Counted from the stretch's first letter, positions 14,019-43,480 are shown. The stretch: DNA of 64,000 nucleotides from Escherichia coli (GCA_032372955.1 GCA_032372955.1_4725.1), one strand, 5' to 3'. Numbers and translations are program-made. Notes: generated by a model not told the origin, from the letters alone.

Positions 14019-14042
14019 TTTCACGGCTATATTACTTACGTG
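14019..14042 (+). promoter_or_regulatory. candidate phage promoter, TATATTAC-containing conserved motif (copy 1)
   Basis: TTTCACGGCTATATTACTTACGTG, 20/20 nt core identical to 43431..43450; about 45 nt upstream of ATG 14084. Confidence 0.45.
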
Positions 14043-14083
14043 GGTAAAGAAAATTTATTAATAGATTCAAAGAGGTACGTGCG

Positions 14084-14770
14084 ATGAAATCTTTATATTC
14101 GTTGGATTGTTTAAATTTCTTATCTCAGGAAACACGCGCTGAAGTAATTGAAAATATTCGGAAGAACGATCTTGCCCATCAAGAAGAACATGTGCTTGCT
14201 GTTGTTGAACTGGCAAATGAACTTGCTGATGTGGTTGGTATCATCAAGCCCACGGAACGTCGTCGTCTATTAACGGCTGCTTTTATGCATGATATCGCTT
14301 GCCACGAAAACAGAACATACCACCACCTTATCGGGGGTATTCGTGCGTCGGTTATACTGCTTCGTAACGAGCAGCATATTTTCACACCGGAAGACATCGA
14401 GGAGATACGCGTACTTATTGCTGAGCATCGTGCGTCGTATTCTGGTCCACGTAGCTCGGTTGCTTCTCAGGTGCTTCGTCTGGCGGATATGGGTCGTCTC
14501 GATAGCGAACGTTTTGGTATCCGTGCAATCGAACATCGTTACGGTCAGATGAGCAAAGAGTTCGCATTACAGGAAACCGCCGACTATCTTATTTCTAAAT
14601 TTGCGCCTGATGGCTACGCTTGGATTACGTATCCGGCGTTAGGTCAGCAACTTTATATGAAAGAGATTGCGGTGATTAAATCGCTCTGTGCGGATCGTGA
14701 TAAACTCATTGCTTATTTGGATGATGTTTATACGTATGTTGAAAAGAAACATGGTGAAATCATGTGTTAA
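14084..14770 (+). CDS. HD-domain phosphohydrolase
   Basis: H..HD..H..D pattern (EEHVLAV, AAFMHDIACHE, AEHRAS, LRLADMG); AGAGG RBS. Confidence 0.55.
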   Translation: MKSLYSLDCLNFLSQETRAEVIENIRKNDLAHQEEHVLAVVELANELADVVGIIKPTERRRLLTAAFMHDIACHENRTYHHLIGGIRASVILLRNEQHIFTPEDIEEIRVLIAEHRASYSGPRSSVASQVLRLADMGRLDSERFGIRAIEHRYGQMSKEFALQETADYLISKFAPDGYAWITYPALGQQLYMKEIAVIKSLCADRDKLIAYLDDVYTYVEKKHGEIMC

Positions 14771-14792
14771 ACATGAAAGCGGAGAATAATGA

Positions 14793-15275
14793 ATGAGTAT
14801 CGTTGATTTAACATTAACAGAAGTTGGTGATGGTATTGAGGTTTCGATGAAAACCTCCGACGATCGCACCGTTGTTGCTAAACTGGAAGAAACCCTGTAC
14901 GGCAATTACGTGGTGGGCGTTTCAGGGAAGGTGAGTATGTATCGCCTGGCTGGTATTTTAAGCGTCTTTGATGGGGGATTGCTGCCGTCCGACCAACTCG
15001 AGCTCCAGAACAAATTGATCGACAATGACTTCTACACGGAAAATGTGAAAGTCTTTGGTTACAGCATGATGGGTGGTGTATTTAGCGCCGCGACGAACAC
15101 GCTTAACTTCGGTACCCAACAACTGATTCAGTTCAGTATCGAAAAGGGTAAACTGAAAACGGCGTGGAAAGGCAGCGCTGCATTCACACCAACCGATCTT
15201 CTGCTTACTTCCGCAGAACAGCATTTAAAAGCAAGTAAATCGGGTCGTGCGTTTCTGGAGCAATTAAATCAATGA
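14793..15275 (+). CDS. hypothetical protein
   Basis: 160 codons, GGAG RBS. Confidence 0.5.
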   Translation: MSIVDLTLTEVGDGIEVSMKTSDDRTVVAKLEETLYGNYVVGVSGKVSMYRLAGILSVFDGGLLPSDQLELQNKLIDNDFYTENVKVFGYSMMGGVFSAATNTLNFGTQQLIQFSIEKGKLKTAWKGSAAFTPTDLLLTSAEQHLKASKSGRAFLEQLNQ

Positions 15276-15829
15276 CCCCGGCCATCTTCTTTATGTCGGA
15301 TACCCATTTTGATAGCGAGCGTACCTGGACGTATTCACGCCGTCCGTTCGCAAGCGTCGCTGATATGAACCAGCACATGCTGAAAGCCATCAACAAGCTT
15401 CCAAAGAACAGTGTGTTGTGGCATTTAGGTGATTGGGGTAAGTTCGAGTTCGTGGAAGCCATTCGTTCTGATATCCAGGTTCAATTGGTATTGGGGAATT
15501 GGGACGAAGACGCATACAAAGCAACAGGATTAAGCTTTGAAGCGTGGCGTGATAAATTGCTCGGTATGGGGTTTGCTGCGGTTTATGAACATCCGTTGGT
15601 ATTGCCGATTAGCAATGACGAATCCTACTGGCTATGCCATAAGCCCAGCGAAAGAAACCCAGGCTACTTTAATTTATTCGGTCATATTCATCGCTGTATG
15701 TTAGCGAAGGCTAACGGACTTAATGTCGGCGTTGATCAGCATTTCTATGCGCCGATTAGTTTGGACACCGTGCGTTTTTGGCGTAATGCGATAGAAAATC
15801 ATTACGACGAAGAAGTATGGATGGAGTGA
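15272..15829 (+). CDS. calcineurin-like metallophosphoesterase
   Basis: Motifs SDTHF (DxH), HLGDWG (GD), LGNWDED (GNHD/E-like), FGHIH (GHxH). Confidence 0.6.
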   Translation: MTPAIFFMSDTHFDSERTWTYSRRPFASVADMNQHMLKAINKLPKNSVLWHLGDWGKFEFVEAIRSDIQVQLVLGNWDEDAYKATGLSFEAWRDKLLGMGFAAVYEHPLVLPISNDESYWLCHKPSERNPGYFNLFGHIHRCMLAKANGLNVGVDQHFYAPISLDTVRFWRNAIENHYDEEVWME

Positions 15830-15839
15830 TCATTAACCA

Positions 15840-15866
15840 CCCTCCCTTCGGGGAGGGTTTATGCTG
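15840..15866 (+). terminator. stem-loop with UUCG tetraloop plus TTTATGCTG
   Basis: CCCTCCC(15840-15846) TTCG GGGAGGG(15851-15857) TTTATGCTG(15858-15866). Confidence 0.55.
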
Positions 15867-15895
15867 CGTTACCAGCACCTGTTAAGGAGATAAAG

Positions 15896-16171
15896 ATGTC
15901 TCGATCATCGACACACCCTGATCCCTGGAAACGATTTCTTAAGGAGCTTCATTATCATGTCGCAGCTCGACCCGGTTTGAGCGCACACCAAATGGAAATC
16001 GTTCTACAGGCGTTACTCATACGACACCCTCAAGTTACACGTATTAAATCATTCATTGGATCTGGAGAGTTCTATGCTTGCAAAAACTGTTTTAGCCGTC
16101 GTGACCATTACATCTACTTCTATTATCGCGCGGTTCCTTCGTCAATGACGGGTCGCGGTGTGGATTTTTAA
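15896..16171 (+). CDS. hypothetical protein
   Basis: 91 codons, AAGGAGA RBS; preceded by 10-codon uORF that starts in the TTTATGCTG motif. Confidence 0.5.
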   Translation: MSRSSTHPDPWKRFLKELHYHVAARPGLSAHQMEIVLQALLIRHPQVTRIKSFIGSGEFYACKNCFSRRDHYIYFYYRAVPSSMTGRGVDF

Positions 16172-16245
16172 CACATGACTACGGTAAAAATTAACGGTTT
16201 TTCATGTTCGTATAGGACATGAAAACAAACAATAAAGGCGTTAGA

Positions 16246-16680
16246 ATGAAGAATTCCATTGTTCGTCACGATTCGGATCGCGGGTTTTTTATCGATACGG
16301 ATATCCTTCACGATATTTATTTCAATGACGATCGTGAATTAGCTGAGCTTGTAGACCAACGCTCGGAGACAATCGTCGCTGCTGGAGGAATATTTAAACC
16401 TCAACGATGGGAGGGACTTGATGTTAGTATCCGTCCCATCATCAGCCGAGAAACGCCTTTTGAATTACTCTTTATTTTCTCACCCCGATCGTTACCTGAT
16501 GAACAACCGACAACGTTATCCTTAACGGCTGAAGTTGGTTATTGGTCGTACCATATCGAACAAAACGGCGTGGTACGTGAGGGTACGCTCGAACCTTTGG
16601 AATTAAAGAAGTTTCTTGGTACCATCAAAGACCAAGAACGTAAACGTAACCGTGCAATACGGAAACAAAACCGGAATTAA
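16246..16680 (+). CDS. hypothetical protein
   Basis: Track ATG 16219 lies inside an AT-rich hairpin; next in-frame ATG at 16246 used. Confidence 0.45.
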   Translation: MKNSIVRHDSDRGFFIDTDILHDIYFNDDRELAELVDQRSETIVAAGGIFKPQRWEGLDVSIRPIISRETPFELLFIFSPRSLPDEQPTTLSLTAEVGYWSYHIEQNGVVREGTLEPLELKKFLGTIKDQERKRNRAIRKQNRN

Positions 16681-16726
16681 TTTATTAGCAATCTCGACCA
16701 CAGAAATCGGTCACTTTTAATAGGAA

Positions 16727-17257
16727 TTGAAAAGAATGAAAAAGTTGTTTCTTGCGGCTTTATTTATTACGGCTTCAGCACATGCTTGGGATTATAGCGA
16801 ACTGGAAACCGGACACGCCAAACTAGGCACGATGTATACCTGGTCATCAGCAGAAGTCAGTGCACCAACCGCCCTGGAAGTTAACTGCTTGTCTACGGGA
16901 GGCGCGTGGGTAAAACTGGATACGGAAGATGAAGGTTATCAGGCACCTCTTCTTCGTGACTATCCGGGTATCGTTAAAATCACGATTGGAACCGTTGATG
17001 GAATCAGTTATTTCAATGGAGAAACCGATCTTAACTTCTGGTCGAAGGGTGGACAACAGCGTTTGGTGAACTTCGTTAGTGAATTGAATCAAGCGTTGAC
17101 CATTTCGGTGTTAACCGATGATGGTAAAACGTACCGCGTTCGTCCGATCGAACCGGAGATGCGAATCGATGTCCGTAAATGTCCAGCGGGTGTGCCAGCA
17201 ATGGTTGACCCCAACACGCGTACCGTACGCACACCTGAAGAAATGAACGCACTTTAA
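16727..17257 (+). CDS. secreted protein (signal peptide)
   Basis: N-terminal MKRMKKLFLAALFITASAHA signal-peptide-like segment. Confidence 0.55.
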   Translation: MKRMKKLFLAALFITASAHAWDYSELETGHAKLGTMYTWSSAEVSAPTALEVNCLSTGGAWVKLDTEDEGYQAPLLRDYPGIVKITIGTVDGISYFNGETDLNFWSKGGQQRLVNFVSELNQALTISVLTDDGKTYRVRPIEPEMRIDVRKCPAGVPAMVDPNTRTVRTPEEMNAL

Positions 17258-17264
17258 CATGGAG

Positions 17265-17308
17265 GAAGGTGGATGGGCGTACCCATCCACCTTCACGAGG
17301 CTATTATG
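17265..17308 (+). terminator. perfect 13-bp stem-loop followed by CTATTATGG
   Basis: GAAGGTGGATGGG(17265-17277) CGTA CCCATCCACCTTC(17282-17294). Confidence 0.5.
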
Positions 17309-17536
17309 GCGAAGAAACCAAAGAAACGTAATAAGAGATACAATCCGAATAAACGTTCGAAGTTTACGCTGGTTTACATGACGGACACTGAGTTCCAGGA
17401 AGCCAATCGACGTCATCGTTGTCTACGGGAAGCTTACCTCAATGAACATGGCTCTAAGGTTCTAACGGCTGCTGACGATGTTCCTGAAGAACAGTTTACC
17501 GATATTCAGTTATTCTTATCAAAAGGAATTCAATAA
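17306..17536 (+). CDS. small basic protein
   Basis: Track start 17273 lies inside perfect 13-bp stem 17265..17294; ATG 17306 follows ACGAGG RBS; N-terminus MAKKPKKRNKR. Confidence 0.45.
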   Translation: MAKKPKKRNKRYNPNKRSKFTLVYMTDTEFQEANRRHRCLREAYLNEHGSKVLTAADDVPEEQFTDIQLFLSKGIQ

Positions 17537-18492
17537 TGAAAACGCTTATTGATACGACATGCCCTCATTGCGGACACGACATTTCGCTGGCATCGATTCG
17601 TTACGATATGTTTTCGGATATGCCGTTGCCGAACACGTGCTATGTTTGTACTAGCTGTTTGAAAACCGTTAAGGTATTTGTTGTCGATAACAGCGCAGAA
17701 CGCCATATTTCGTTTTTACCATCGGATGAAAAACACGAAGCGATTTGGTCGATTATTTTCTCTAATACAACTCGCCCAGCCAATCCGTTTGTTTCCAGTA
17801 CATCGATGGCTGTTGATGTCGATTGTTTTATGTCTGAGTTAACCTTGGGTACCGTCGAACATATTAATGCGATCGCCGATCTTTATATTGGTCAGTCGTT
17901 GAATCAAGGGCATCTGTCACCAAACGGGACTCTCTGTATCGAAGGAGACAACTACGAAGAGGCGATGTCGCATTACCGCACGCATCTGACGATACCCATG
18001 CGCTACATCAGCGATATTCAAGAAGCCGCACTTTTCGCAACCGATCTTGCGTGGTTATTTAATGCGGTTATCCATCAAGCAAATGAGGGTACGTTGTTGC
18101 AGAAAGTTGATGGTAAGATCGGCTGGTGCCACAGCGTGCGTAGTGCGGTTGTGATCGATTACTTATTGCGTAATCGGTGGATTGCCCAACTGTTTAATTA
18201 TTGGTATCAATACGTCTTGGATTACGACGTTGAGCCGGTTCTTTACAGTGCTGATGGTAGCGTCTGGTTGTCGCATGGGTTTGTTAAAGGGCTGGATGTT
18301 GATGAACCCCTGTTCCTCTATCCACGAGGATTTCGGGAACTAACGTTTGATGAGGCAATGGAACTGTTAAAACAGGATAATCCTGTCAACCACCATGAAG
18401 AGAACGCTCGTCGATTCAGTCCTGATCGTAAAGCGACGGATCTGTCCGACAGCAATGCTTCGATAATTCCAGCAGATCGTGTCTTGCATTAA
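17536..18492 (+). CDS. hypothetical protein with N-terminal zinc-ribbon-like CxxC pairs
   Basis: CPHCGH ... CYVCTSC near N-terminus; 318 codons. Confidence 0.55.
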   Translation: MKTLIDTTCPHCGHDISLASIRYDMFSDMPLPNTCYVCTSCLKTVKVFVVDNSAERHISFLPSDEKHEAIWSIIFSNTTRPANPFVSSTSMAVDVDCFMSELTLGTVEHINAIADLYIGQSLNQGHLSPNGTLCIEGDNYEEAMSHYRTHLTIPMRYISDIQEAALFATDLAWLFNAVIHQANEGTLLQKVDGKIGWCHSVRSAVVIDYLLRNRWIAQLFNYWYQYVLDYDVEPVLYSADGSVWLSHGFVKGLDVDEPLFLYPRGFRELTFDEAMELLKQDNPVNHHEENARRFSPDRKATDLSDSNASIIPADRVLH

Positions 18493-18507
18493 CAAGGGGG
18501 TCTCGGT

Positions 18508-19350
18508 GTGAAAATCAGTTATCAGGAACAGGATCATCGCTGTAAACACTGTGATAAAGATCTTAGTAAACCGATGCTTGCAGCATACGGTCAACACGAA
18601 CCAACGGTGGTATGTGATGACTGCGCAAGCCGCTACTCACTTGTGCGTGAAGGTGATGATGAGGGTATCCAACTTAAGTTACGTGATACCCATGAATATC
18701 GACTTCGTGTTGTCGCGGTACTGGCTCCACCGTACCAGAAAGGGAAACCCCGTAAAGCAGCATGGACGTTCGCGGAGTTCGATGTGGCGATTGATAAACC
18801 GATTACGAAAGGTCTTTCACCGTTCAACGACATCGTTGAGTATAACAACATCAAGAACGCGGTTGCTGATTTGCTCCCATTATCACCACACAGTTGTGTC
18901 TATGGGGTTGGAACGTTACCGCAGGTGTGTTGTGTCTTACCACGAGAAACATATATATCGTTAGGTGCCCGACAACTGATTAAGTTCTTTGGGGTATATG
19001 ACGATATGCTGAGTAAGATCGGTGAGCTTCTGGTTACCATGTCGAAAACCAAAGACGTTAGCCGGAAGAACAAAGATGTGCGTATTAGTCATGCGGTTTG
19101 TGCGCATCTGATGGCGGGGTCGATGTGGTTGGGTGATTACGCTAACACGGTTATTAGCCAGCTCCCCATTTCGTACGAGGTTGTGTTTAAAGATGGCGTT
19201 TTCTACGGCGTGCGTCGTAAAGATACGGCTTTCCAGCTGAAGAATATCATTCTCGACTTACCTATCGATCATCTTATCGCCACTGTTATTTCTGATCCCT
19301 CACGCGTTGTCGACATGGTACGTGGAAAACTAAAAGGTAACCCAGCATGA
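18508..19350 (+). CDS. hypothetical protein with N-terminal zinc-ribbon-like CxxC pairs
   Basis: GTG start after GGGGG RBS; CKHCDK ... CDDCAS. Confidence 0.5.
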   Translation: MKISYQEQDHRCKHCDKDLSKPMLAAYGQHEPTVVCDDCASRYSLVREGDDEGIQLKLRDTHEYRLRVVAVLAPPYQKGKPRKAAWTFAEFDVAIDKPITKGLSPFNDIVEYNNIKNAVADLLPLSPHSCVYGVGTLPQVCCVLPRETYISLGARQLIKFFGVYDDMLSKIGELLVTMSKTKDVSRKNKDVRISHAVCAHLMAGSMWLGDYANTVISQLPISYEVVFKDGVFYGVRRKDTAFQLKNIILDLPIDHLIATVISDPSRVVDMVRGKLKGNPA

Positions 19351-19658
19351 AACGACTATCTGCAAGACAGGTGTCGTTGTGTTACTACGGAATGGAGTAC
19401 GATGCCTTAGCAAAATTGTTTCGTCAGTATCTTGAAGATCATCACCTTACCAACGATGATCTCTTTTCTTATTCTTATTTGAACTACCCGATTAACATGA
19501 TACGCTACTCGGAAGCCGAAGGCGAATACCTGGTGGTTGCTTCCGTTATGCGTTATCTGTTAGTTGATCTATACAAACGTCTGTACCTGCCGGAGAGACT
19601 GCGTATACAAGAAACATTAAGGAGACTTCATAGTGAGCGTTTTACGGGAAGCGTTTAA
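19347..19658 (+). CDS. hypothetical protein
   Basis: 103 codons, ATGA overlap. Confidence 0.5.
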   Translation: MKRLSARQVSLCYYGMEYDALAKLFRQYLEDHHLTNDDLFSYSYLNYPINMIRYSEAEGEYLVVASVMRYLLVDLYKRLYLPERLRIQETLRRLHSERFTGSV

Positions 19659-20229
19659 GTTCGTTGCTGGAGAACAGACCGACGATGATATTCGGCGATT
19701 CATGGCATATATCGCACCGCTGAGTCACGATGGGGTTCCGGGACATAATGTGTTCCTGCCGTTGCGGGGTGTTTCGACAACAGCCGCCTATGTCCGTCTG
19801 TTAACCGAGATGTTGCGGATTAGCGAGCACCCTGGTGGTACCAACCGTGTTAGCTTGAAAGGGCTTGCTGAGCAATTATCTTACATGCCTGTTATCCGTG
19901 AGAAACCATCATGGGCGGAAGAACGTCGCGCGTTAACCCTGATACGCAATCTGGATTCTGATGCTTGGCGTGAGAACCTCATCACGTATTTGTTGATCAT
20001 CAAACGTCGTCAGAAACCAGCGAAGAGTCTGCTCATTATTGACGACAACGACCCGAACGTTGATTTGGTTGAGATCACACGAGCAATAAGCGCGTTGACC
20101 GGTGAATCAATCAATCCTAAACTTGAACCGTTGGCCGCAATCCGTCAGATGGTCAGCAGGCTGTCTGATAATACGGCCTTTGTCAATATTTGCAGCGATT
20201 ACGATAAAGAAAAGGAGAGTATTCGATGA
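19633..20229 (+). CDS. hypothetical protein
   Basis: GTG start after AAGGAGA RBS; 198 codons. Confidence 0.5.
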   Translation: MSVLREAFKFVAGEQTDDDIRRFMAYIAPLSHDGVPGHNVFLPLRGVSTTAAYVRLLTEMLRISEHPGGTNRVSLKGLAEQLSYMPVIREKPSWAEERRALTLIRNLDSDAWRENLITYLLIIKRRQKPAKSLLIIDDNDPNVDLVEITRAISALTGESINPKLEPLAAIRQMVSRLSDNTAFVNICSDYDKEKESIR

Positions 20230-20561
20230 TAGACAGTATCGAACTTAATGAAGAGCAGCCGTTATCGGTCGTACAACAACTTTTAGCGCAGCATGAGCTT
20301 GTTTGGTCGGAAGAGCGTACGCCATGTGAAAACTGTCGCTATAACCATGTTGTCGCTGAGACCGTTTTTGGTTCTCTAACTATCGAGTGGAAAGGTTGGA
20401 AGGATTATACCAGCTACGACTGCGATTTACCTTTCCCAGTCAACGATGAGTTTCCACACATCAACGCTGATAGTTTAGATGAAGCGAAAGCGAAAGTAAA
20501 AGCTTGGTACGACTACGTGATATTGGCTGGACTCGGCCTGACAACAGATAAACCAGAATAA
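20226..20561 (+). CDS. hypothetical protein
   Basis: 111 codons, ATGA overlap. Confidence 0.5.
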   Translation: MIDSIELNEEQPLSVVQQLLAQHELVWSEERTPCENCRYNHVVAETVFGSLTIEWKGWKDYTSYDCDLPFPVNDEFPHINADSLDEAKAKVKAWYDYVILAGLGLTTDKPE

Positions 20562-20573
20562 TGAAAAGGTGTT

Positions 20574-21899
20574 ATGATGAGCAAACTACTGTTTGAAATT
20601 AACGGGAAAGAATATACACCGCCCCAGGCAGTTATCGGTGCGTTATTACGATACACTGCATACCGGCGTCAAGGATGGTTGTTTGATATTGATGGACCGG
20701 CGTTTATTACAGCGATACAGGATGCTATCGCCCCGAAGAAATTATGCGATAATTACAATACTGAACTGTCGTACAAATTATCGCCTATGGTTCCATATGC
20801 GTCCTATAAGGAACTTTTGACGGGTATATGTTCGTATGAACAAGGTGGGTCCACATCGTACACGCGTGCGCTGGAATTCGTAGAAGAAATAGTGCGTCGA
20901 TTGAAAGTTGATCCGTATAACACGCGTAAGGGAATAATACAACTAATGGTGTACGATTTCTCGGCTAGCCAAGAAATCATCGCGGAGTATAATCCTTACT
21001 TACTTATACGTGCTTTCTTCTGGATCGATGCAGCGCTAGATGATCGTTCCGGACCATGCCGTTTAGCGATTCATGCCGGTGAACGCCAGTTGAAGCAATG
21101 GTTGGAAGATTGCGATATCAATTTGCATGGCATGACGATACCCGATTTCTTCGAAGACTATTTTTCGTTATCGGGACTCGATGATGCTGTAGTAGAACTG
21201 AAACCTACGGATACCGATCCGGTTGTCGTCGAACTTAAAACCGAATCGGATACCAGCAACCATTCGTTCGAGCCGTTAGCGGTAGAGAAGCCTGCATTTT
21301 GTTTAGATGTTGAAAACCTTAGTTTGGAAAAGAATGGAGTATTGCTGGAAATCGGTATCGTGTTCTTCGATCTGGCTAATCCAGAATCCATTGTTAACGG
21401 TCCGCGTATAGATATCTTCCCTGACGTTCATGGTCAAATCGCTGACGGCGGTCGTATCAGTGAATCAACAGTAGAATGGTGGCAAACCAAAGCACCAAAG
21501 GAAGCGCGCGACTATTGTTTTCAACATTGTAAGGCAATGGGTTATAAAGAAGCCATCGCCGAAGTAAATGCGTTCGTCAACAGTATTCGTGACAGAATGA
21601 CTGAATACTACGGTAAAGATACCTTCTATTATCTTGCTCGTGGTGAAACAGATTGGCCTCAATTAGAGCATTGGTTCCGTAAAGCGGGCTTTAAGCCAGT
21701 TTGTCGTTATAACCAGGTTCAGGATATCCGTTCGATGATTGCTGCGTATCAAGACAAACCGGTATCCATCTTAGGCACCAAAGAGTATCCAGACATGGGT
21801 ATTCCGCTGATCCGTCATACCGCTATCGGTGACGCAATCATGGATGCGTACGACGTTGCGTTAGCGCGAAGCATGGCGACGTCTAAGCTACTGAAGTGA
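20574..21899 (+). CDS. protein with C-terminal DEDDh-type 3'-5' exonuclease-like domain
   Basis: FCLDVENLS (Exo I D-x-E-like) and HTAIGDAIMDAYD (Exo III H-x4-D-like) in the C-terminal half. Confidence 0.45.
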   Translation: MMSKLLFEINGKEYTPPQAVIGALLRYTAYRRQGWLFDIDGPAFITAIQDAIAPKKLCDNYNTELSYKLSPMVPYASYKELLTGICSYEQGGSTSYTRALEFVEEIVRRLKVDPYNTRKGIIQLMVYDFSASQEIIAEYNPYLLIRAFFWIDAALDDRSGPCRLAIHAGERQLKQWLEDCDINLHGMTIPDFFEDYFSLSGLDDAVVELKPTDTDPVVVELKTESDTSNHSFEPLAVEKPAFCLDVENLSLEKNGVLLEIGIVFFDLANPESIVNGPRIDIFPDVHGQIADGGRISESTVEWWQTKAPKEARDYCFQHCKAMGYKEAIAEVNAFVNSIRDRMTEYYGKDTFYYLARGETDWPQLEHWFRKAGFKPVCRYNQVQDIRSMIAAYQDKPVSILGTKEYPDMGIPLIRHTAIGDAIMDAYDVALARSMATSKLLK

Positions 21900-21950
21900 T
21901 AGCACCCTGCGCAATGAATATGACGATGATCGTTTAATAAAGGAAAGAAG

Positions 21951-22265
21951 ATGTCTGAAAAGCATATTGAAATTCTTGATGCCGCTATCGCTTCGAAAGA
22001 TAGCGGTACATTCATCAAAGCGGTATTTGCAGAACAGCGTAATAACCCAGCAACGCTGAATAAAGTTCGTGATGCAATTGCATTCCGTCTTACCAAGTCA
22101 GATATTTCTGATGTGGATAAAACAACGATGCGTAAATTACGCGACGATCTTAATGCATACATCGCTCGTGGTTGTACGGATAAAACCGTTCGTGAGGTTC
22201 TCGATTCTAACGTGAAATACGAATCAGACTTCAAGAAGAACGGTTCAACACCGAAAACAGAATAA
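21951..22265 (+). CDS. hypothetical protein
   Basis: 104 codons, AAGGAAAGAAG RBS. Confidence 0.5.
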   Translation: MSEKHIEILDAAIASKDSGTFIKAVFAEQRNNPATLNKVRDAIAFRLTKSDISDVDKTTMRKLRDDLNAYIARGCTDKTVREVLDSNVKYESDFKKNGSTPKTE

Positions 22266-22274
22266 CAGCATATT

Positions 22275-22315
22275 CCCTCCTCCTTCCCTGATGGGTTGGA
22301 GGAGGGTTATGTTCG
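22275..22315 (+). terminator. stem-loop plus TTATGTTCG
   Basis: CCCTCCTCC(22275-22283)/GGAGGAGGG(22298-22306) with inner CCC-TGAT-GGG. Confidence 0.5.
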
Positions 22316-22328
22316 TATTGAGGTTAAC

Positions 22329-22628: not shown

Positions 22629-22675
22629 AACATTACTGAAATAGGATATCTAATGAGGTGAAATTCCTCGCTACT

Positions 22676-22700
22676 ACTTACTTACTATAATTACTTATTT
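22676..22700 (+). promoter_or_regulatory. possible variant of the TATATTAC motif upstream of paralog family A
   Basis: ACTTACTATAATTACTTATTTAC about 15 nt upstream of ATG 22714; one extra A relative to CTATATTACTTA. Confidence 0.25.
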
Positions 22701-22713
22701 ACCGAGGTATCAA

Positions 22714-23316: not shown

Positions 23317-23330
23317 TATACCTCAACCCT

Positions 23331-23356: not shown

Positions 23357-23388
23357 TTACTACTACTAGGACTACTAAGGAATAAAAC

Positions 23389-23922: not shown

Positions 23923-23931
23923 TAATCCCTA

Positions 23932-33130: not shown

Positions 33131-36181
<3,051 letters not shown>

Positions 36182-36185
36182 GAAA

Positions 36186-36506
36186 ATGGGTAAATGTTGG
36201 ACGGATAAAGAAGATGAAGCGTTGCTGCTTATTCTTAGCACGTCACCAAAAGCGAGTTATAAAGAAGTAGCACGTTGCATGAATCGAACACCATGTTCTA
36301 TTCGCGCACGTTACATCAGGTTGAGGAAACGACGTGGTGATCTACCGCCTCGCGGGGGAGCTTACACACCCGAAGAAAGGGTTAGGATTACCATGCTTGC
36401 AAAGAAACATACCCTAAAAGAAATTGCTGAAATAATGAATCGTAGCGTACACGCCATCCGGTGTTATTGTTTTCGAAACAAGATATCGCTTAAAGTAAGA
36501 CGTTGA
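36186..36506 (+). CDS. tandem-HTH (Myb/SANT-like or sigma-r4-like) protein, paralog 1 of 6
   Basis: WTDKEDEALLLIL..YKEVARCMNRTPCSIRARY and YTPEERVRI..LKEIAEIMNRSVHAIRCY. Confidence 0.55.
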   Translation: MGKCWTDKEDEALLLILSTSPKASYKEVARCMNRTPCSIRARYIRLRKRRGDLPPRGGAYTPEERVRITMLAKKHTLKEIAEIMNRSVHAIRCYCFRNKISLKVRR

Positions 36507-36518
36507 TGGGGTGGCACT

Positions 36519-36986
36519 ATGGTCAAGGACTGGACACCCGAAGAAGACGCGATATTGATTACCCTGTACCGAAACGGTATCCCGATGCAAGAGATTGCGG
36601 CACGGCTTGACCGAACAGAAGGTTCGGTTCAAGGTCGAATTAACCGTAATCGCAAGCGCTGGAAACTCATGTCGCGTCACCGCTATTGTTGTTTCGAAGA
36701 ACGCGTGATGTTAGCCGATTATCTTAAGACGCATAGCGTAAAAGAAGCTGCAGCGATGTTCAACCGTAGCGTGGACGCAATCGCTAAACTCTGCTACCGT
36801 TACGGTATTGTTGCATGCAAAGCGCAACGTCGAGAGATGATTTATTATCGAATACATACGCTTAGAAAAGAGAATAACACCTGGGAGAGAATACGGAATA
36901 TCATCAATAACGAATTTAACACCCATTACACGTTAAGCGGTGTTCATAGCCTCTACTACACTCAAGCATTAAAACGCGTAGAATAG
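36519..36986 (+). CDS. tandem-HTH protein, paralog 2 of 6
   Basis: WTPEEDAILITLY..MQEIAARLDRTEGSVQGR plus second HTH-like repeat. Confidence 0.55.
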   Translation: MVKDWTPEEDAILITLYRNGIPMQEIAARLDRTEGSVQGRINRNRKRWKLMSRHRYCCFEERVMLADYLKTHSVKEAAAMFNRSVDAIAKLCYRYGIVACKAQRREMIYYRIHTLRKENNTWERIRNIINNEFNTHYTLSGVHSLYYTQALKRVE

Positions 36987-36999
36987 GAGAAATCTCGTT

Positions 37000-37503
37000 G
37001 TGAAACCTCCAGTACGACGATGGAATCGTAAGGATGATGAACAGTTGCTGGAATTGTACTATCGTCACCCGAAATTAAAAATCCGTGAAATCGCAGAAAT
37101 CATGGAAACAACGTACGGTGCAATTAAATCGAGGTTGATATACTTAAATGTTGAACGTCGTAAACCGCATAAACGTTTCAGTGTCGATGAGTTGGAATAC
37201 ATCAGAGTGCACTGCAAACACAAAAGTTACAAACAACTCGCACGCGATTTAAACAGGGATCCAAACAGTATTAGAACGATTGCACACCGTCATGGTTTCA
37301 AGCGGTTAAGCGAGGCTGATACTAAGATCTTCATAGCCTTCGTTGATACATTGTTAGAAGAAACACAGGATTGGCACCACATTGCTGAACGGGTTAATGC
37401 GCATTTCGGTATAACACGTACGAAGCAGGCTGTCTATCAGCGTTGGTGGCATCATAGAAAGAAAAGAGGGATACAAGATGGGACGATCTCGACCGTGGCG
37501 TGA
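37000..37503 (+). CDS. tandem-HTH protein, paralog 3 of 6
   Basis: GTG start after AGGAGA RBS; WNRKDDEQLLELY..IREIAEIMETTYGAIKSR; FSVDELEYI..YKQLARDLNRDPNSIRT. Confidence 0.55.
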   Translation: MKPPVRRWNRKDDEQLLELYYRHPKLKIREIAEIMETTYGAIKSRLIYLNVERRKPHKRFSVDELEYIRVHCKHKSYKQLARDLNRDPNSIRTIAHRHGFKRLSEADTKIFIAFVDTLLEETQDWHHIAERVNAHFGITRTKQAVYQRWWHHRKKRGIQDGTISTVA

Positions 37504-37981
37504 CGACGAGCTGAAAGATGTTACGCATCTGTATTTGAACACATCGATGACGATTGATGAAATCGCGCAACGGACAGGGCGAACACGCGCCAGCGTCGAC
37601 GCGCGTCTGGGGCGTTTGGGAATACGTCAACGTCAAAAGCATCGGCCGTATACGGAAGAAGAACGCACATACATCAAGTCGGTAATCAAACAAAAATCGC
37701 TGAGGGAGATTGCGTACGATTTAAACCGTTCGTATGACTCGGTTCGTCAGTTTATACGGCTTAATAGAATTCGTCGTGCGCTAACCAAGCAAGAACGGGA
37801 AGCGATTATCGCGTTTATCGCGGAACGACTTAACGTTACCCAAAATTGGAATGTTATCACATACGACGTTGTTGTTAAATTTGGGATTACAACGAATAAA
37901 CATGCGTTGTATCAACGTTGGTGTTACTACACGAAAAACAAAGGAGCTGCCTATGCGCAAATACCGTCGCTGGACAGATGA
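37478..37981 (+). CDS. tandem-HTH protein, paralog 4 of 6
   Basis: WRDDELKDVTHLY..IDEIAQRTGRTRASVDAR; YTEEERTYI..LREIAYDLNRSYDSVRQ. Confidence 0.55.
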   Translation: MGRSRPWRDDELKDVTHLYLNTSMTIDEIAQRTGRTRASVDARLGRLGIRQRQKHRPYTEEERTYIKSVIKQKSLREIAYDLNRSYDSVRQFIRLNRIRRALTKQEREAIIAFIAERLNVTQNWNVITYDVVVKFGITTNKHALYQRWCYYTKNKGAAYAQIPSLDR

Positions 37982-38483
37982 GGAACTCTCACGCCTCGAG
38001 AATTACGCGGACCAGATACCCAGACCACCGGTTAGTGAGCTGGCTGCTGTATTTCAACGCACAGAAAGCGCGATTAAGAATAAGTTGTATATGTTGTTCC
38101 CTTCGATGAGAACCAATGAGGCATATACAGACAACGAGATTTCCTATATTCGCGACAATATCCACAGATACTCGGTTAAACAACTGTCAAATCATCTTGG
38201 CCGATCGAGAGCGAGTGTCGCCTCCGTAATACGACGACTTAAGCTACGTCGATACGACCCAGATGAATGGTGCAAAATTTCAGACCGTATTACAGCACTT
38301 CGACGTGAAGGAGTTAACTGGAGGGAAGTTGCTCGCATTATCAGCGTCGAGTTCAAACGGGAGTATCGTCACACACATCTTTGTCAGCGTTACTATTATA
38401 ACACACGTGGTAAGAAATGGCAGCAGGTAAAGAATACACAACAACCGAAATCGCATTCATACGCCGAAACGCGGGCGTCATGA
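37953..38483 (+). CDS. tandem-HTH protein, paralog 5 of 6
   Basis: ATG 37953 after AAAGGAG RBS (track 37851 start is upstream in-frame); WTDEELSRLENY..VSELAAVFQRTESAIKNK; YTDNEISYI..VKQLSNHLGRSRASV. Confidence 0.55.
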   Translation: MRKYRRWTDEELSRLENYADQIPRPPVSELAAVFQRTESAIKNKLYMLFPSMRTNEAYTDNEISYIRDNIHRYSVKQLSNHLGRSRASVASVIRRLKLRRYDPDEWCKISDRITALRREGVNWREVARIISVEFKREYRHTHLCQRYYYNTRGKKWQQVKNTQQPKSHSYAETRAS

Positions 38484-38923
38484 CATCGAAAGAAATAGGT
38501 GAAGCGTTAGGACGGAGTCAGAGAGCAATTAGCGCGATTGCTTCAATGCTTAACATCAAACTGAGTCATCGTAATCGGAACGATATTTTATCGCGGGTTG
38601 TCCATTTACGTGATGGCGAGAACCGTCGATGGCGGGAGATCATTACCATCATTCAGGATGAGTTTGATGTCACGTATTCCGAATCGGGACTACAGCGTGG
38701 ATATCAACGCGTGAAGCTCACGACGATAAAGAACACCGATCCTACTCGTCTTCGTATGTTAAATGAAATCCATCGTTATCGGCAATACGATAAACTTCCA
38801 TGGAAAGAGGTGCAAAAACGTATCGAGGTGCGTTACAACAAACATTATCAAATCACAACACTTTGTCAAATGTACCGACGTCATCGTAATCGACTGTTAG
38901 GTAATGAGGGAATTTTAGCATGA
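38417..38923 (+). CDS. tandem-HTH protein, paralog 6 of 6
   Basis: YTTTEIAFI..SKEIGEALGRSQRAISAI; overlaps the previous gene by 67 nt in another frame; alternative start 38480. Confidence 0.5.
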   Translation: MAAGKEYTTTEIAFIRRNAGVMTSKEIGEALGRSQRAISAIASMLNIKLSHRNRNDILSRVVHLRDGENRRWREIITIIQDEFDVTYSESGLQRGYQRVKLTTIKNTDPTRLRMLNEIHRYRQYDKLPWKEVQKRIEVRYNKHYQITTLCQMYRRHRNRLLGNEGILA

Positions 38924-39453
38924 GCATCAAAACAGTAGTTATTAATGAACGGCCGTTCTATTGCGTTATCGCCTCAACGGCCGCCGATCCACACCTTTAC
39001 CCACATAAACGACAGATTCGTGAGCTGTACCGTATTCTCGACGACGTAGAATCAGAGGCATGGGCTACCACGTTTATGTTTGAGAATATCCCCGATTTAA
39101 AACGCGAGTACGATGCCTTAGAACTAGAAAAGCGTTTACCAGACACCGCAAAGTTGGTCGTTATGATCGACGCCATCGCTTCGATGCCGGTAGGCCTCTT
39201 GGAAGTGAATATAGAGAGCCATATGGGTATTCATGACGTTACATCGATTATTGTAAAACCCGAATATCGCGGACGTGGTATCGGCCACGCCTTGATGAAC
39301 GAAGCACGTAACATCGCTTACCAGTGCGGTGGGCATTCTATTGGCCTGGATGTTCGTGCCGATAACGCTGAAGCCCAGGCGTTCTATGAGTCTGAGGGTT
39401 TCACGGTAAGATCGTCCTGGTTAACATCGTCCGTAAAACAGAAAGGAGCTTAA
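38920..39453 (+). CDS. GNAT-family N-acetyltransferase
   Basis: IVKPEYRGRGIGHALMNEA..GLDVRADNAEAQAFYESEGF acetyl-CoA-binding pattern. Confidence 0.65.
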   Translation: MSIKTVVINERPFYCVIASTAADPHLYPHKRQIRELYRILDDVESEAWATTFMFENIPDLKREYDALELEKRLPDTAKLVVMIDAIASMPVGLLEVNIESHMGIHDVTSIIVKPEYRGRGIGHALMNEARNIAYQCGGHSIGLDVRADNAEAQAFYESEGFTVRSSWLTSSVKQKGA

Positions 39454-39454
39454 C

Positions 39455-39883
39455 ATGAGCTGGTTCGATCGTAAATTCTTCACGTTGGAAGAAGTCTTGA
39501 ACCTACCTTGCGACGCGAATAAGGAAAAGATCGCCGACATGCAACGAATCGCATTAACTCACGCGATTAATGATGTCTCACAGTTCTCTATCGGTGATCG
39601 TGTTGAGCTTCCGTTCGGAACCGGCGAAGAAGGAGATAACACAGCGGTTAAATTCGTTCCCGCTGTTGTCGTGGGTGTCCATTTCACGGCATCACAAGTC
39701 AGTTACGACCTTGCGATACCTATCGACGGTTGTGACTTGTTTATGGTCTTCAACAATTTCCGTGGTGATATGCGCACGATAGACGGAAGCAATGCGACCG
39801 ATTTCATCGAGAAACGTGTTGCCGAGGCGTTGGTGAAGAAAACGCTCGGTACGCCGAATCTTAAAGTTATTGAAAATGAATAA
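39455..39883 (+). CDS. hypothetical protein
   Basis: 142 codons. Confidence 0.5.
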   Translation: MSWFDRKFFTLEEVLNLPCDANKEKIADMQRIALTHAINDVSQFSIGDRVELPFGTGEEGDNTAVKFVPAVVVGVHFTASQVSYDLAIPIDGCDLFMVFNNFRGDMRTIDGSNATDFIEKRVAEALVKKTLGTPNLKVIENE

Positions 39884-39888
39884 TTGTA

Positions 39889-39916
39889 CCCTCCCGGCAT
39901 GGGAGGGCTTATGCCG
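39889..39916 (+). terminator. stem-loop plus CTTATGCCG
   Basis: CCCTCCC(39889-39895) GGCAT GGGAGGG(39901-39907). Confidence 0.55.
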
Positions 39917-39932
39917 ATAAAAAGGAAACAAA

Positions 39933-40583
39933 ATGAACGACGTTATTGCATTAGTCACGCAAGGCGAAACCAAAATGCCGTTGCCGTACCAGCAGCTTGC
40001 TGCTATCTTAGAACCAATGACGCACCATCAACAATGGATCGTGCGTGAAGAATATACCCAGCGCATCGGGTGGTCATTGTTAACCATGGATACCGCGCTC
40101 CAGTTAGCGAGCATCTGTTACGGGCGACGCGTCGCTGACCTGGGTTGTGGGACGGGTTACCTGACTTACGTGTTACGTAAACTCGGTGTTGAGGATATTA
40201 CCGCGTACGACATCGCAATACATCCCCATCCGTTTATTGATGATATCCAGCAAGCGGACTACACAAACATCGATCTTTCACAGTACGACGTTATTTTACT
40301 GTCGTGGCCACCTTACGACAAACCACAAGCGGCATTGGTTGCCGCACGTATTCAACCTCACCAGCTTTTGGTCTATCAGGGTGAAGGATACGGAGGCTGC
40401 ACTGGAGATGACACCTTCCATTCGATGCTTCGTTCGGATTTTGCCTCTGTGGAAGAATTCACCGTTAACTTAAATGCACGTCATTTGAACTTTTACGGTA
40501 TATACGACTCATGGACGGTTTATCGCAAGCAATCAGAATTTACAAAACAAAAGGATGATTTGGAAGATATGCGTCATGAATGA
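39933..40583 (+). CDS. SAM-dependent methyltransferase (motif I then PPY motif)
   Basis: VADLGCGTGYLTY (motif I) followed about 55 aa later by LLSWPPYD (NPPY/DPPY-like). Confidence 0.55.
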   Translation: MNDVIALVTQGETKMPLPYQQLAAILEPMTHHQQWIVREEYTQRIGWSLLTMDTALQLASICYGRRVADLGCGTGYLTYVLRKLGVEDITAYDIAIHPHPFIDDIQQADYTNIDLSQYDVILLSWPPYDKPQAALVAARIQPHQLLVYQGEGYGGCTGDDTFHSMLRSDFASVEEFTVNLNARHLNFYGIYDSWTVYRKQSEFTKQKDDLEDMRHE

Positions 40584-40593
40584 AGGAAAAGAA

Positions 40594-41280
40594 ATGGAGG
40601 ACCGTTTTATGTTAATCGTAACCAGCAGGCAGGAAGTATCCGATTGGCTTAACATTCATCTTAACGCTAACGCCTCCCCAGGGGGCGTTGTGATCAATCC
40701 CGTTTATAATGGGCTGCCGTTCAAAGCTCGATATGAACGAGGTGCGTTGGTATCTGCGAAAGTGAATGACGTCTCATTAAATCCGGAACATGCTTTACGC
40801 GTATTTCGTATTCCGTTAACGATCAATTATCGTGGTTTAGCAAAAGTGATGGTCGTTTCTGGTACGGTATGTAAATACGCTGAAGCGTCTATCGATGATT
40901 TTCATAATGGGGTAAGGCACTTTAGTGCGGTTGCTGTAGGTTATCCTGAAGCGGATCGGGTTGAGGTTATCGAACAGGGATCTACAGCTATTCCGTCCGA
41001 CGTGTTTAAACTGCGTTGTTTGTTCGAGACTTGGCGCTTAGCCAGCTTCAAACAGTCGCGAATCGTTCCACATCGAACAGTATCGGACGCGCTACGACAG
41101 CTTGATGTGATCGTCGCAACGTTAAATCGGACAAAAGGTATTTCTGCGTTGTTGTTTTCGTTGAACAGTCCAGAAGACCGTTCACGAACGCAGAATCCAG
41201 ACTGTGTGTTCTTAACCCCGGAAGGAGTTATCCATGGTTTACCGAAGAAGTCTCTGGAAGGTAAGATGGCAACGTCTTAA
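40594..41280 (+). CDS. hypothetical protein
   Basis: ATG 40594 after GAAGGA RBS (alternative 40576). Confidence 0.45.
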   Translation: MEDRFMLIVTSRQEVSDWLNIHLNANASPGGVVINPVYNGLPFKARYERGALVSAKVNDVSLNPEHALRVFRIPLTINYRGLAKVMVVSGTVCKYAEASIDDFHNGVRHFSAVAVGYPEADRVEVIEQGSTAIPSDVFKLRCLFETWRLASFKQSRIVPHRTVSDALRQLDVIVATLNRTKGISALLFSLNSPEDRSRTQNPDCVFLTPEGVIHGLPKKSLEGKMATS

Positions 41281-41324
41281 GTGGTTATGTAAAGAGAAAT
41301 GGAAAAAGATAAAGAGGGCTTTAA

Positions 41325-41924
41325 ATGACAGTGGTGAGTATTACTGAGCCGCGGTTTATCCGCGAAGTTATCGACCGTCGTCGATCGGTGATCGTTGCTT
41401 ACGGACGAATGGAAAGTACCGCACCTCAAGAACTTTGCGTGCTATTCCAGGGGTGTTTCGTACACCGACAGGAAGGCCATAAGGGTAAAATCGTTCCTGG
41501 TGATTTGATTAAAGCGATGCGTAAGATCGATGTTGAACAACGCAAGCTGAATCTGTCGCATCGTCTGCCTCCCCTCGATGAGGCCGAAGCCAAAGACTTC
41601 GCCGATCGGGTTATGAAATCAGCTATCGTTCAGTACTTCGGAAACATGCCAAGCAAACGTAATAAAGCCTTACATGTTGAATCCGATCAGCTGCTTCATT
41701 GGAATTCGAAAGCGTTCCGATTCGAAGAGGTGTTCTTACCCACTTTCGGTAAACGGTTGGCGTGGGACTTTTCAACAGAGTATGTTTACAGCGGAGACAT
41801 CCCGCCAGAAATACAACATAAGAAAGGGAAAGTACTAGAAGAGCAAACAGAAGCTGCAGTCATCGAACAGGTTTACCAGCGTCTGACATTCTGGTTGTTC
41901 GGACCAATACTGGAACCTAAGTAA
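41325..41924 (+). CDS. hypothetical protein
   Basis: 199 codons, AGAGGG RBS. Confidence 0.5.
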   Translation: MTVVSITEPRFIREVIDRRRSVIVAYGRMESTAPQELCVLFQGCFVHRQEGHKGKIVPGDLIKAMRKIDVEQRKLNLSHRLPPLDEAEAKDFADRVMKSAIVQYFGNMPSKRNKALHVESDQLLHWNSKAFRFEEVFLPTFGKRLAWDFSTEYVYSGDIPPEIQHKKGKVLEEQTEAAVIEQVYQRLTFWLFGPILEPK

Positions 41925-42002
41925 AACATTACATACACCAAATAACTTTTTAATACCGGGTAAATCCTCCTTATCTAAACATATTTCAAAAGGACAGTAA
42001 TC

Positions 42003-42449
42003 ATGCAAATTACAAAAGCAGAACGTATCGAAATTTTCAAAACCACAAAAACCAACGAACAGAATCGAATCGCTAACAATACTCGACTGGTTGCTCGAAT
42101 GTTGCGTGCGGGCTACGAGCAAGCCTCTCGATTTACCAGCCATTTAAAGCAGACTGGCATTGCTTATTACGACGAAGATAAAGACATTCTGATTTACACC
42201 GGATGGATCGAAAACCATTGCTGGTGCGATCACGGACATGCGATAATGCACCTGCTCCCAAGCGGTAACGTTAGCGTAACGTTTACATTAACGCCGTTGA
42301 TGGTGCGTCGTGCGTTCCGTATGAATAACTTCATGGAACTGCAGGCGTACGTCCCAATAGCAGCAAAGATGGTATTACCGACCATCCACGATTGCACGGA
42401 TATTGTATTCGATGGAAAAGACCTATCCATCACGTACTATTTAGATTGA
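42003..42449 (+). CDS. hypothetical protein
   Basis: 148 codons, AAAGGA RBS. Confidence 0.5.
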   Translation: MQITKAERIEIFKTTKTNEQNRIANNTRLVARMLRAGYEQASRFTSHLKQTGIAYYDEDKDILIYTGWIENHCWCDHGHAIMHLLPSGNVSVTFTLTPLMVRRAFRMNNFMELQAYVPIAAKMVLPTIHDCTDIVFDGKDLSITYYLD

Positions 42450-42456
42450 GGGAAAG

Positions 42457-43413
42457 ATGATGGCTGTGCTAACGCCCAGATACTTCACCTTCGTTTGCGG
42501 TAATAAACCGAAATTTAGTTACAGTGATGATATCCATCGCATGCTACGTAACCGCGTAGCAAAAGCGTTGATTGCACTCATTTCGGAGCGTTACGGGTTT
42601 GGTCTCGATTACCCCAAAGAAGGAGGTCGGCTGGTTGCTCCGTTACCACCGAATGATCATCCGATACACCCGTTATTGGATACGGTGATTCTTCCCCTGT
42701 TCACTGAACAGACGCCCCTAACAAAAAGTTTATGTCGCCATTTGCTCTATGATTACAGTGTGCTGTGGGAGCCATTACGTACGATGCAACCACCGCGTAA
42801 TTTAGGCGTATTTGACAAGTATGAAGTGTCAACCATTGTTAATCTGCTTGGCGGCGAACATGCTTTAGGTTGGCGCGTTGCCGATGAACTTACGATAAGT
42901 TGGGGGGTGAGTAACGTCACAGATTACGATATAGACCGTAAACAAATCTGTCTTTGGGAGCATACCGGCCCGACAGTGCAAGAACTGCTTGATATGCCCA
43001 ATCTCTTCTACACGGGAGTGATACTGGGTTATCGGCCAGGGGATAAGGACTTCTACCTCGAAAATCATCGATGGTTAACGCAATATGGGCACACTTTAAC
43101 CTACCCAAAACTTGAAGAAATGGGGAATAATGTTTGGTGTATCCGTAATTTAGCCATTCTTCCCGATAACGAGCATTTTGCGAAAATACTTGCCGATAAA
43201 GGAGGCATGGAAGATATTTACAGCGTGTGTTTTGATTTAGGCATCGCCTGTGTCTTTCGTATCGCTGACGTCGGAGGGAGTCCGCGCATCGAGATGGTTG
43301 AACGCTATCGTTGGGCAGAAGGTACGATACCACCTGATGAAATACTCAAACTTTTCCCTGAGGTTGTGGTTAAACGGATTAATGAGATCCAACCCTACTT
43401 AGCAAAAGCGTGA
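42457..43413 (+). CDS. hypothetical protein
   Basis: 318 codons, GAGGGAAAG RBS. Confidence 0.55.
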   Translation: MMAVLTPRYFTFVCGNKPKFSYSDDIHRMLRNRVAKALIALISERYGFGLDYPKEGGRLVAPLPPNDHPIHPLLDTVILPLFTEQTPLTKSLCRHLLYDYSVLWEPLRTMQPPRNLGVFDKYEVSTIVNLLGGEHALGWRVADELTISWGVSNVTDYDIDRKQICLWEHTGPTVQELLDMPNLFYTGVILGYRPGDKDFYLENHRWLTQYGHTLTYPKLEEMGNNVWCIRNLAILPDNEHFAKILADKGGMEDIYSVCFDLGIACVFRIADVGGSPRIEMVERYRWAEGTIPPDEILKLFPEVVVKRINEIQPYLAKA

Positions 43414-43430
43414 ATGGGTTAATACATTAA

Positions 43431-43480
43431 TTTTCACGGCTATATTACTTAGGTGAAGCAATGCAGTAATCAGCTTCACC
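43431..43480 (+). promoter_or_regulatory. candidate phage promoter, TATATTAC motif (copy 2), followed by a 5' hairpin
   Basis: TTTTCACGGCTATATTACTTAGGTG then GGTGAAGC(43452-43459)/GCTTCACC(43473-43480). Confidence 0.45.

Follow-up and report, generated by a model that had tools for sequence, protein, structure and literature searches.

Two copies of a short motif in a 64,000-nucleotide (nt) stretch of DNA from the Escherichia coli assembly GCA_032372955.1, hereafter the window, are very probably early promoters of a Goslar-like chimallivirus, of the type known from phage phiKZ, and most likely are read by the injected virion RNA polymerase (vRNAP). This reading is based on the agreement between the composition of the motif family, the placement of its copies, published promoter consensus sequences, the position of the motif in other genera, and its coincidence with early transcription in RNA sequencing (RNA-seq) data. 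Goslar (vB_EcoM_Goslar) is a nucleus-forming E. coli jumbo phage of the genus Goslarvirus with a genome of 237 kilobases (kb). The window is approximately 95% identical to Goslar, and is colinear in reverse complement with Goslar positions 156820–93138. RNA polymerase beta-like genes are encoded in the window at 891–3224 and 5297–7303. All five vRNAP subunits are present in Goslar virions according to mass spectrometry, and sfGFP-vRNAP colocalises with the injected Goslar DNA (Armbruster et al., bioRxiv 10.1101/2023.09.20.558163).

The 20-mer TTTCACGGCTATATTACTTA occurs exactly twice in the window, on the plus strand at 14019–14038 (site 1) and 43432–43451 (site 2). A previous inspection of the window, the sequence-only reading, had reported this exact pair, with the first copy correctly placed and the second, given as 43431..43450, off by one nucleotide, four T's preceding the C at that point. 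No match to the 20-mer with up to three mismatches was found in 100 dinucleotide-preserving shuffles. The copies continue directly on their 3′ side with CGTG and GGTG, as had been read, which results in a 24-nt repeat that is identical at 23 of its positions (14019–14042 versus 43432–43455). The spacing of 45 to 70 nt to the start codons was likewise confirmed, as the motif ends 45 and 70 nt upstream of the ATG codons at 14084 and 43522, respectively. A longer repeated element enclosing the motif had been set beforehand as refutation of a recognition site; the repeat analysis (family D12) excludes both a longer repeat and a mobile element, as the repeat ends at 24 nt and the flanks of the two copies are unrelated.

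The 8-mer TATATTAC contained in the motif is unremarkable by itself, with two occurrences in the window versus 2.87 expected, and the significance therefore rests on the longer element. The pattern TTTCA-N4-TAYATTAY-N4-GTG, with at most one mismatch allowed, is found at just the two sites versus 0.02 expected. With a compact 28-nt weight matrix, copies 1 and 2 score 34.9 and 40.1 bits, the 99.99th percentile of the window background being 0.6. Copy 2 begins 18 nt past the stop codon of the gene before it, which has the same orientation; no terminator lies in the gap.

The motif family in Goslar and early transcription

The Goslar genome, assembled from five pieces, was scanned with TAYATTAC in context and with weight matrices. 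The scan yields 13 copies of the motif, all located on the strand equivalent to the plus strand of the window, with the family consensus (t)TAAT / A-rich – TTTCACGnC – TAYATTAC – YTnn – GTGA. The box TAYATTAC is present in every copy, and TG(A) is invariant or nearly so throughout; 2 nt separate the box from TTTCACG before it, and 4 nt from GTG(A) after it. The TTAAT block further upstream is weak or missing in several copies. Separation from the remainder of the genome is wide, with 12 sites scoring at least 48 bits, one at 32 and the next-best match at 11. In a leave-one-out evaluation of the 28-nt matrix, 12 copies score 23–39 bits and the weakest 10.9. The exact 20-mer is common to four copies. 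In E. coli genomes only partial matches are found (E = 6, in 3 of 5426 genomes), and a host-derived site is therefore rejected.

Each of the 13 copies has the orientation of the gene that follows it, 12 of them are situated in DNA annotated as intergenic, and the predicted 5′ untranslated regions (UTRs) range from 25 to 205 nt. The thirteenth copy lies inside an annotated open reading frame (ORF) of 62 codons, Goslar_00047 (49584–49772), with its core at 49732 and its predicted start at 49718; this ORF is probably over-annotated, with no real coding start as annotated. One copy is found 80 nt upstream of Goslar_00189, which is chimallin, the protein of the nuclear shell (match to PDB code 7SQT, E = 0). 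The GenBank record of Goslar has terminators annotated and no promoters.

Expression data are available from a knockdown of chimallin, which traps the Goslar genome together with the virion polymerase in the early-infection (EPI) vesicle; the knockdown transcriptome at 30 minutes post-infection (mpi) matches that of wild-type infection at 5–20 mpi (bioRxiv 10.1101/2023.09.20.558163). Per-gene counts were taken from Supplementary Table 2 of that preprint, and the RefSeq locus tags were verified at both sites and at chimallin. The data reveal 10 blocks of knockdown-resistant genes, with log2 knockdown/control ratios of about 0 to +1.3, whereas the remaining genes are down by 3 to 8 log2 units. 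Each block starts directly downstream of a copy of the motif, the first genes being gp004, gp021, gp040, gp047, gp075, gp159, chimallin, gp225, gp214 and gp200. The three other copies fall within blocks and coincide with upward steps of the ratio, at gp105, gp175 and gp182. Were 13 gene boundaries drawn at random, all 10 block starts would be among them with a probability of 1.4e-15. For 9 of the 13 copies, the gene on the upstream side is practically silent in the knockdown (log2 ratio −3 to −7), implying that initiation there must be de novo. The proposal of a protein recognition site that defines a promoter class is thus supported, since early transcription begins or steps up at every one of the 13 co-oriented copies.

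The counterpart of site 1 is located at Goslar 142809–142786. The log2 ratio changes here from −5.4 for gp160 and gp161 to +1.0 for gp159, and the knockdown reads per 100 nt rise from 0.9–1.4 (gp160, gp161) to 79–124 (gp159–157). The counterpart of site 2 is located at Goslar 113806–113783, between gp106 (log2 ratio +0.1) and gp105 (+1.0). Averaged over the adjoining genes, the step is from 0.00 (gp110–106) to +1.14 (gp105–101; p = 1.5e-7), and the increase in read density is 2.5-fold for the knockdown, as against 1.16-fold for the control. All genes from gp159 through gp094 are knockdown-resistant (log2 −0.5 to +1.3), with gp160, gp161 and gp093 at −5 to −6. Within this array the ratio falls off between gp159 (+1.0) and gp106 (about 0) and then returns to +1.0 at gp105, as expected of an internal booster promoter.

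Published early promoters and conservation among relatives

The sequence-only reading had likened the motif to a TATATTAC-type consensus for the early promoters of phiKZ. The comparison is correct: the phiKZ early consensus is listed as TATATTAC in a compilation of predicted or mapped consensus sequences (PMC7058600 Table 2). The same table gives TTAWTAVAA_HYWTTTRARR_BTATATTACDWHDGTG for 201phi2-1, …TTTYARRYAKATATTATYWWADTG for OBP, and …TTTCARRYAKATATTATYWAAGTGWA, with TTTCARR…GTG, for N1M2. The Goslar-type motif, TTAAT…TTTCACG-GC-TATATTAC-TTAG-GTG, aligns to these block for block and with equal spacing. In early promoters of jumbo phages, an AT-rich box some 10 nt long has its centre near −10 (PMC7598289), and a T-rich element is found upstream of −19 (PMC8244752); these promoters are conserved at −10, −20 and −30 and are read by the virion RNA polymerase. 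Chimallin of phiKZ likewise has an early promoter (PMC8244752).

The 201phi2-1 promoters have the same order and spacing of blocks (a TTAWTA-like stretch, TTTxAxx, the identical TATATTAC, a 4-nt spacer and GTG), occur in few copies per genome before small hypothetical early genes, and have a motif that ends at the region of the transcription start site (TSS). They differ in the −20 block, which is TTTRARR there and TTTCACG followed by a G/C-rich spacer here; moreover, TACATTAC is an accepted variant of the box here, several copies have a weak TTAAT block or none, and the host is E. coli. In common with phiKZ are the 8-mer itself, a T-rich stretch around −20, the presence of a copy before chimallin, and early transcription independent of the host. 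By contrast, phiKZ has 28–32 early promoters, mapped by primer extension, differential RNA-seq (dRNA-seq) and ONT-cappable-seq, whereas Goslar has only 13 detectable copies with very long units (about 35–50 kb), and its flanking positions (−2 and the −20 block) are more strongly conserved, as in 201phi2-1. OBP and N1M2 share the architecture TTTCA-N4-(T)ATATTAY-N4-GTG and a copy at the orthologous position before the HD phosphohydrolase gene; the box is ATATTAT in these phages and TAYATTAC here, and their promoters are bioinformatic predictions, whereas the Goslar copies can be linked to RNA-seq data. Coliphage N4 is comparable in outline, since its infection also starts with a virion polymerase that is injected and uses a few promoters specific to the phage. 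The N4 enzyme consists of a single subunit and recognises a hairpin in the DNA before the start. The motif described here, by contrast, contains no such structure, and its stem-loops come after the predicted start.

Site 1 is followed by the gene of an HD phosphohydrolase with orthologues across the chimalliviruses, and the regions upstream of six of these were examined. In RisingSun, ACP1, N1M2 and OBP a motif of the form TTTCA-N4-TAYATTAY-N4-GTG is found 44–58 nt before the ATG, compared to 48 nt in the window (sequences in Table 1). The N1M2 copy coincides with a predicted promoter (pORF 242) in Supplementary Table 4 of the N1M2 paper. The RAY gene has no intergenic gap upstream, and in PCH45 only a doubtful match is present.

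A pattern scan of IMG/VR retrieved the motif in Goslar and in two more Goslar-like genomes, 3300011560_000001 and 3300045988_173921. At site 2 of 3300011560_000001, the 45 nt upstream of the motif carry 10 substitutions, and the 40 nt from the motif to the first arm of the stem described below carry a single one, at a degenerate (Y) position of the family. At site 1 the whole intergenic region is approximately 99% conserved among the three Goslar-like genomes, and the footprint is therefore uninformative there.

The scan also returned four jumbo-sized contigs (214–228 kb; 3300041411_000178, 3300015261_000002, 3300015262_000001 and 3300048924_000100) that carry TTTCACGTCTATATTACTTGGGTGA. These contigs, together with two of about 96 kb, display no tblastx similarity to Goslar near the sites. 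The matches could represent the same promoter class in an unrelated group of jumbo phages, or chance; about 7 chance matches are estimated for the pattern in a collection of this size, and the distant contigs were consequently discounted as evidence. In 3300048924_000100 a second, weaker copy of the motif is located 1.9 kb away on the same strand.

Mechanism and competing explanations

In the proposed mechanism, the injected virion polymerase, alone or with a co-injected specificity factor, would recognise a composite element formed by a variable TTAAT or A-rich block near −35 to −25, TTTCACG at −23 to −17, TAYATTAC at −14 to −7, and an initiating T-G-A. Transcription would begin at approximately 14042 and 43455. 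Copy 1 would open an array of small early genes of about 35 kb, with the HD phosphohydrolase as the first gene, and copy 2, which lies inside the array with no terminator before it, would act as a booster promoter. The exact start nucleotide, and the vRNAP itself as the reading protein, we infer. The register was taken from review statements on jumbo-phage early promoters, and would place the start on the last G of GTG, as T(−1)G(+1), with the box at −14 to −7.

Several observations weigh against this assignment. The upstream TTAAT block is found at site 2 only and is lacking at site 1, and in 3300011560_000001 the orthologue of site 2 does not preserve it. The RNA-seq data are from Goslar and not from the phage of the window, and they compare knockdown with control at 30 mpi with no per-gene early time course. 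At site 1 the genes used for comparison, gp160 and gp161, are on the opposite strand, and the step at site 2 is only about 2.5-fold. A further step, from gp184 (+0.34) to gp183 (+1.0), with the boundary at about 166925–166967, has no detectable motif upstream. Single-nucleotide starts are predicted only, for Goslar as well as for the window phage, and the sole published statement on Goslar TSSs (legend of Extended Data Fig. 4) is ambiguous. According to reviews, only the non-virion polymerase has been characterised in vitro, and the reading protein could therefore be a co-injected factor instead of the vRNAP itself.

Transcription of the early genes by E. coli RNA polymerase from a host sigma-70 promoter, with TATATT as the −10 hexamer, is a most unlikely alternative. 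TATATT matches TATAAT at 5 of 6 positions, in sigma-70 promoters, too, an AT-rich hexamer is located about 10 nt before a start that is a purine following a T, and site 2 displays a 9-of-12 arrangement (TTAATA-16-TATATT). However, a consensus scan finds no such promoter at site 1, and the match at site 2 is at the level of chance (1.1 expected). There is no −35 hexamer at 16–18 base pairs (bp), the TTAAT block is not conserved, and the most conserved outer blocks, TTTCACG and GTGA, which flank the box closely to its left and right, serve no function in promoters of the sigma-70 type. The transcripts accumulate with the genome kept in the EPI vesicle alongside the vRNAP, and early transcription of the phiKZ type is rifampicin-resistant. 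The chances are just as slim that the motif is a middle promoter, served by the non-virion polymerase and not by the virion enzyme. The middle promoters of phiKZ consist of an A-rich tract and TACT upstream of the start (PMC8244752); an A-tract occurs at some copies and the motif contains TTACT, yet over its full length it matches the early consensus and not the middle one. In addition, genes that depend on the nucleus and the non-virion polymerase fall 8- to 100-fold in the knockdown, whereas those after every copy rise about 2-fold.

The flanks TCAC and GTGA are reverse complements 17 nt apart, which recalls a dimer site, and the motif could then be an operator for a phage-encoded or virion-borne DNA-binding regulator that acts on the early promoters, with the polymerase reading something else. 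No sigma-like factor is known for the vRNAP, and a separate recognition protein is conceivable, which would most likely act as an initiation factor. This explanation is nevertheless very unlikely: the half-sites show no covariation among the 13 Goslar copies, on which basis TCAC…GTGA was rejected both as a dimer operator and as a hairpin; the motif is not symmetrical at its centre; and it points the same way relative to the gene in every copy. Across genera, both the blocks and their distance from the start codon are kept as in the mapped phiKZ and 201phi2-1 early promoters, whose motif ends at the TSS. Should the protein be an initiation factor, the operator would merge with the early-promoter assignment. 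A functionless motif, either left over from a repeated or mobile element or repeated by chance, would fit the exact 20-nt identity at distant loci as the product of a recent duplication, but is hardly credible for a repeat that stops at 24 nt between unrelated flanks, for which zero chance matches are expected and whose 13 Goslar copies are co-oriented, 12 of them intergenic; in diverged relatives the motif is conserved while its flanks change. Finally, the steps could reflect differential decay around an RNA-level processing or stability site in read-through transcripts, a possibility that agrees with the read-through from upstream at site 2 and with the stem-loop after the motif. It is extremely improbable, as the silent upstream neighbours at 9 of the 13 copies leave no transcript to process.

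In E. coli, Goslar serves as the model phage for studies of nucleus-forming jumbo phages and of the early-infection vesicle. No description of an early-promoter motif for Goslar was found in the literature searched, and the RNA-seq preprint cited above does not contain the words 'promoter' or 'motif'. The early-promoter assignment carries over to an enterobacterial genus a promoter class known from Pseudomonas phages, and involves no new mechanism; the kind of element is already known, and is apparently unrecorded for the Goslar group. The family of 24- to 37-nt promoters (13 in Goslar and two in the window) provides a map of the transcription units of the vRNAP and explains why the published knockdown RNA-seq falls into blocks. 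Its members can further serve as templates in biochemical work on the virion polymerase, and as portable elements for early expression in the engineering of these phages.

Stem-loops, further candidates and other elements of the window

The coordinates of the features are collected in Table 1. At site 2 a stem-loop is predicted at the 5′ end of the transcript, and site 1 has none. Both arms of the site 2 stem are intact in 3300011560_000001, with four substitutions in the loop, and the structure could be a 5′-terminal stabilising or export element. In Goslar, 10 of the 13 copies have a stem starting at the predicted +1, compared to a null expectation of 23–26% (p ~1e-4); the specificity of the register is moderate, since other registers give stems in 7–8 of the copies. 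Stems at the predicted +1 lend indirect support to a box centred at about −10. The copies with such a stem include those at 172978, 166069, 160791, 113797, 86705, 49732 and 15067. It is rather doubtful that the +1 stem-loop is a functional signal of early mRNAs made in the EPI vesicle, for example for export or protection from the 5′-end-dependent decay of the host, which would form a composite cassette with the promoter. Early expression of approximately 70% of the genes from only about 13 promoters, via units of up to 35–50 kb, would imply an unusually processive or antiterminating virion polymerase, a reading that is rather doubtful as well.

Table 1. Features of the window, and motif sequences upstream of the HD phosphohydrolase gene in other phages.
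Feature	Coordinates	Strand	Details
Early promoter, copy 1 (very probable)	14019..14042	+	TTTCACG at about −23 to −17, GC spacer, TATATTAC (14028–14035) at about −14 to −7, TTAC, GTG
Early promoter, copy 2 (very probable)	43419..43455	+	TTAAT (43419–43423), TTTCACG (43432–43438), TATATTAC (43441–43448), TTAG, GTG (43453–43455)
Predicted transcription start, copy 1	14042 (±2 nt)	+	Predicted 5′ UTR of about 42 nt
Predicted transcription start, copy 2	43455 (±2 nt)	+	Predicted 5′ UTR of about 67 nt
HD-domain phosphohydrolase, first gene after copy 1	14084..14770	+	Orthologue of Goslar gp159, 98.7% amino acid identity
Hypothetical protein (105 amino acids), first gene after copy 2	43522..43839	+	Orthologue of Goslar gp105
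Early-expressed gene array, orthologues of gp159 to gp094	14042..49055	+	Based on Goslar RNA-seq and window–Goslar colinearity
Stem-loop at the predicted transcript 5′ end	43452..43480	+	GGTGAAGC / 13-nt loop / GCTTCACC; 8-bp stem
Possible weak third copy	5182..5209	+	TACATAACCTAAGAGA (TATATTAACACCTACATAACCTAAGAGA); 16.7 bits, third best in the window
GC-rich hairpin, then TTTATGC(T/C)G	15835–15866, 39885–39916, 46747–46780	+	Intergenic; hairpin for example CCCTCCC-loop-GGGAGGG
Motif upstream of HD gene, Erwinia phage RisingSun			TTTCAaatcTACATTACtaatGTGA
Motif upstream of HD gene, Aeromonas phage ACP1			TTTTCAaacaTATATTATtattGTG
Motif upstream of HD gene, Klebsiella phage N1M2			TTCAgacgTATATTATtagcatGTA
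Motif upstream of HD gene, Pseudomonas phage OBP			TCAAgcagATATTATtatgttGA

A one-base variant of the motif had been noted before the gene at 22714. The sequence, CTATAATTACTTA, is indeed present at 22685–22697, 16 nt before the ATG, but is not a member of the family: it has neither the TTTCA nor the GTG block and scores −12.4 bits (−0.1 with a 1-nt deletion), and was rejected as a third copy. It is situated at the edge of a segment with no counterpart in Goslar, and is therefore outside the reach of the Goslar RNA-seq. The two such segments of the window are 20566–21280 and 22687–23358. An ORF in the latter (22714–23316) has an N-terminus paralogous to the ORF at 24009–24557 (repeat family D9), which suggests a local gene duplication or replacement in the window phage.

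A third, weak early promoter may exist at 5182–5209. Some 89 nt separate this candidate from the RNA polymerase beta-like gene that follows it (5297–7303), and its score exceeds 10.9 bits, the leave-one-out value of the weakest copy in Goslar, which nevertheless marks an early block. At the equivalent position the Goslar RNA-seq displays a small step, from +0.07 (gp166) to +0.48 (gp165).

The GC-rich hairpins followed by TTTATGC (at 15851, 39901 and 46765) constitute a family separate from the early motif, and resemble the phiKZ-type arrangement of a terminator plus a TATG late promoter. They are probably the hairpin-TATG elements of the sequence-only reading, which had set the 20-nt motif apart from that class; the distinction holds, as no TATG is present in or next to the motif. 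On the minus strand, a 10-bp GC-rich hairpin followed by TTTTTAT (13911–13941) lies about 30 nt upstream of the ATG of a helicase gene (13878, minus strand). This hairpin is annotated as a terminator in Goslar, though it has no preceding co-oriented gene, and the helicase is late and knockdown-sensitive. Lastly, the large tail-fibre gene at 54373–58251 contains a tandem array (56029–57576) of 7 copies with a periodicity of 120 nt and 61–74% identity, and this region is the part of the window least like Goslar (83–89%).

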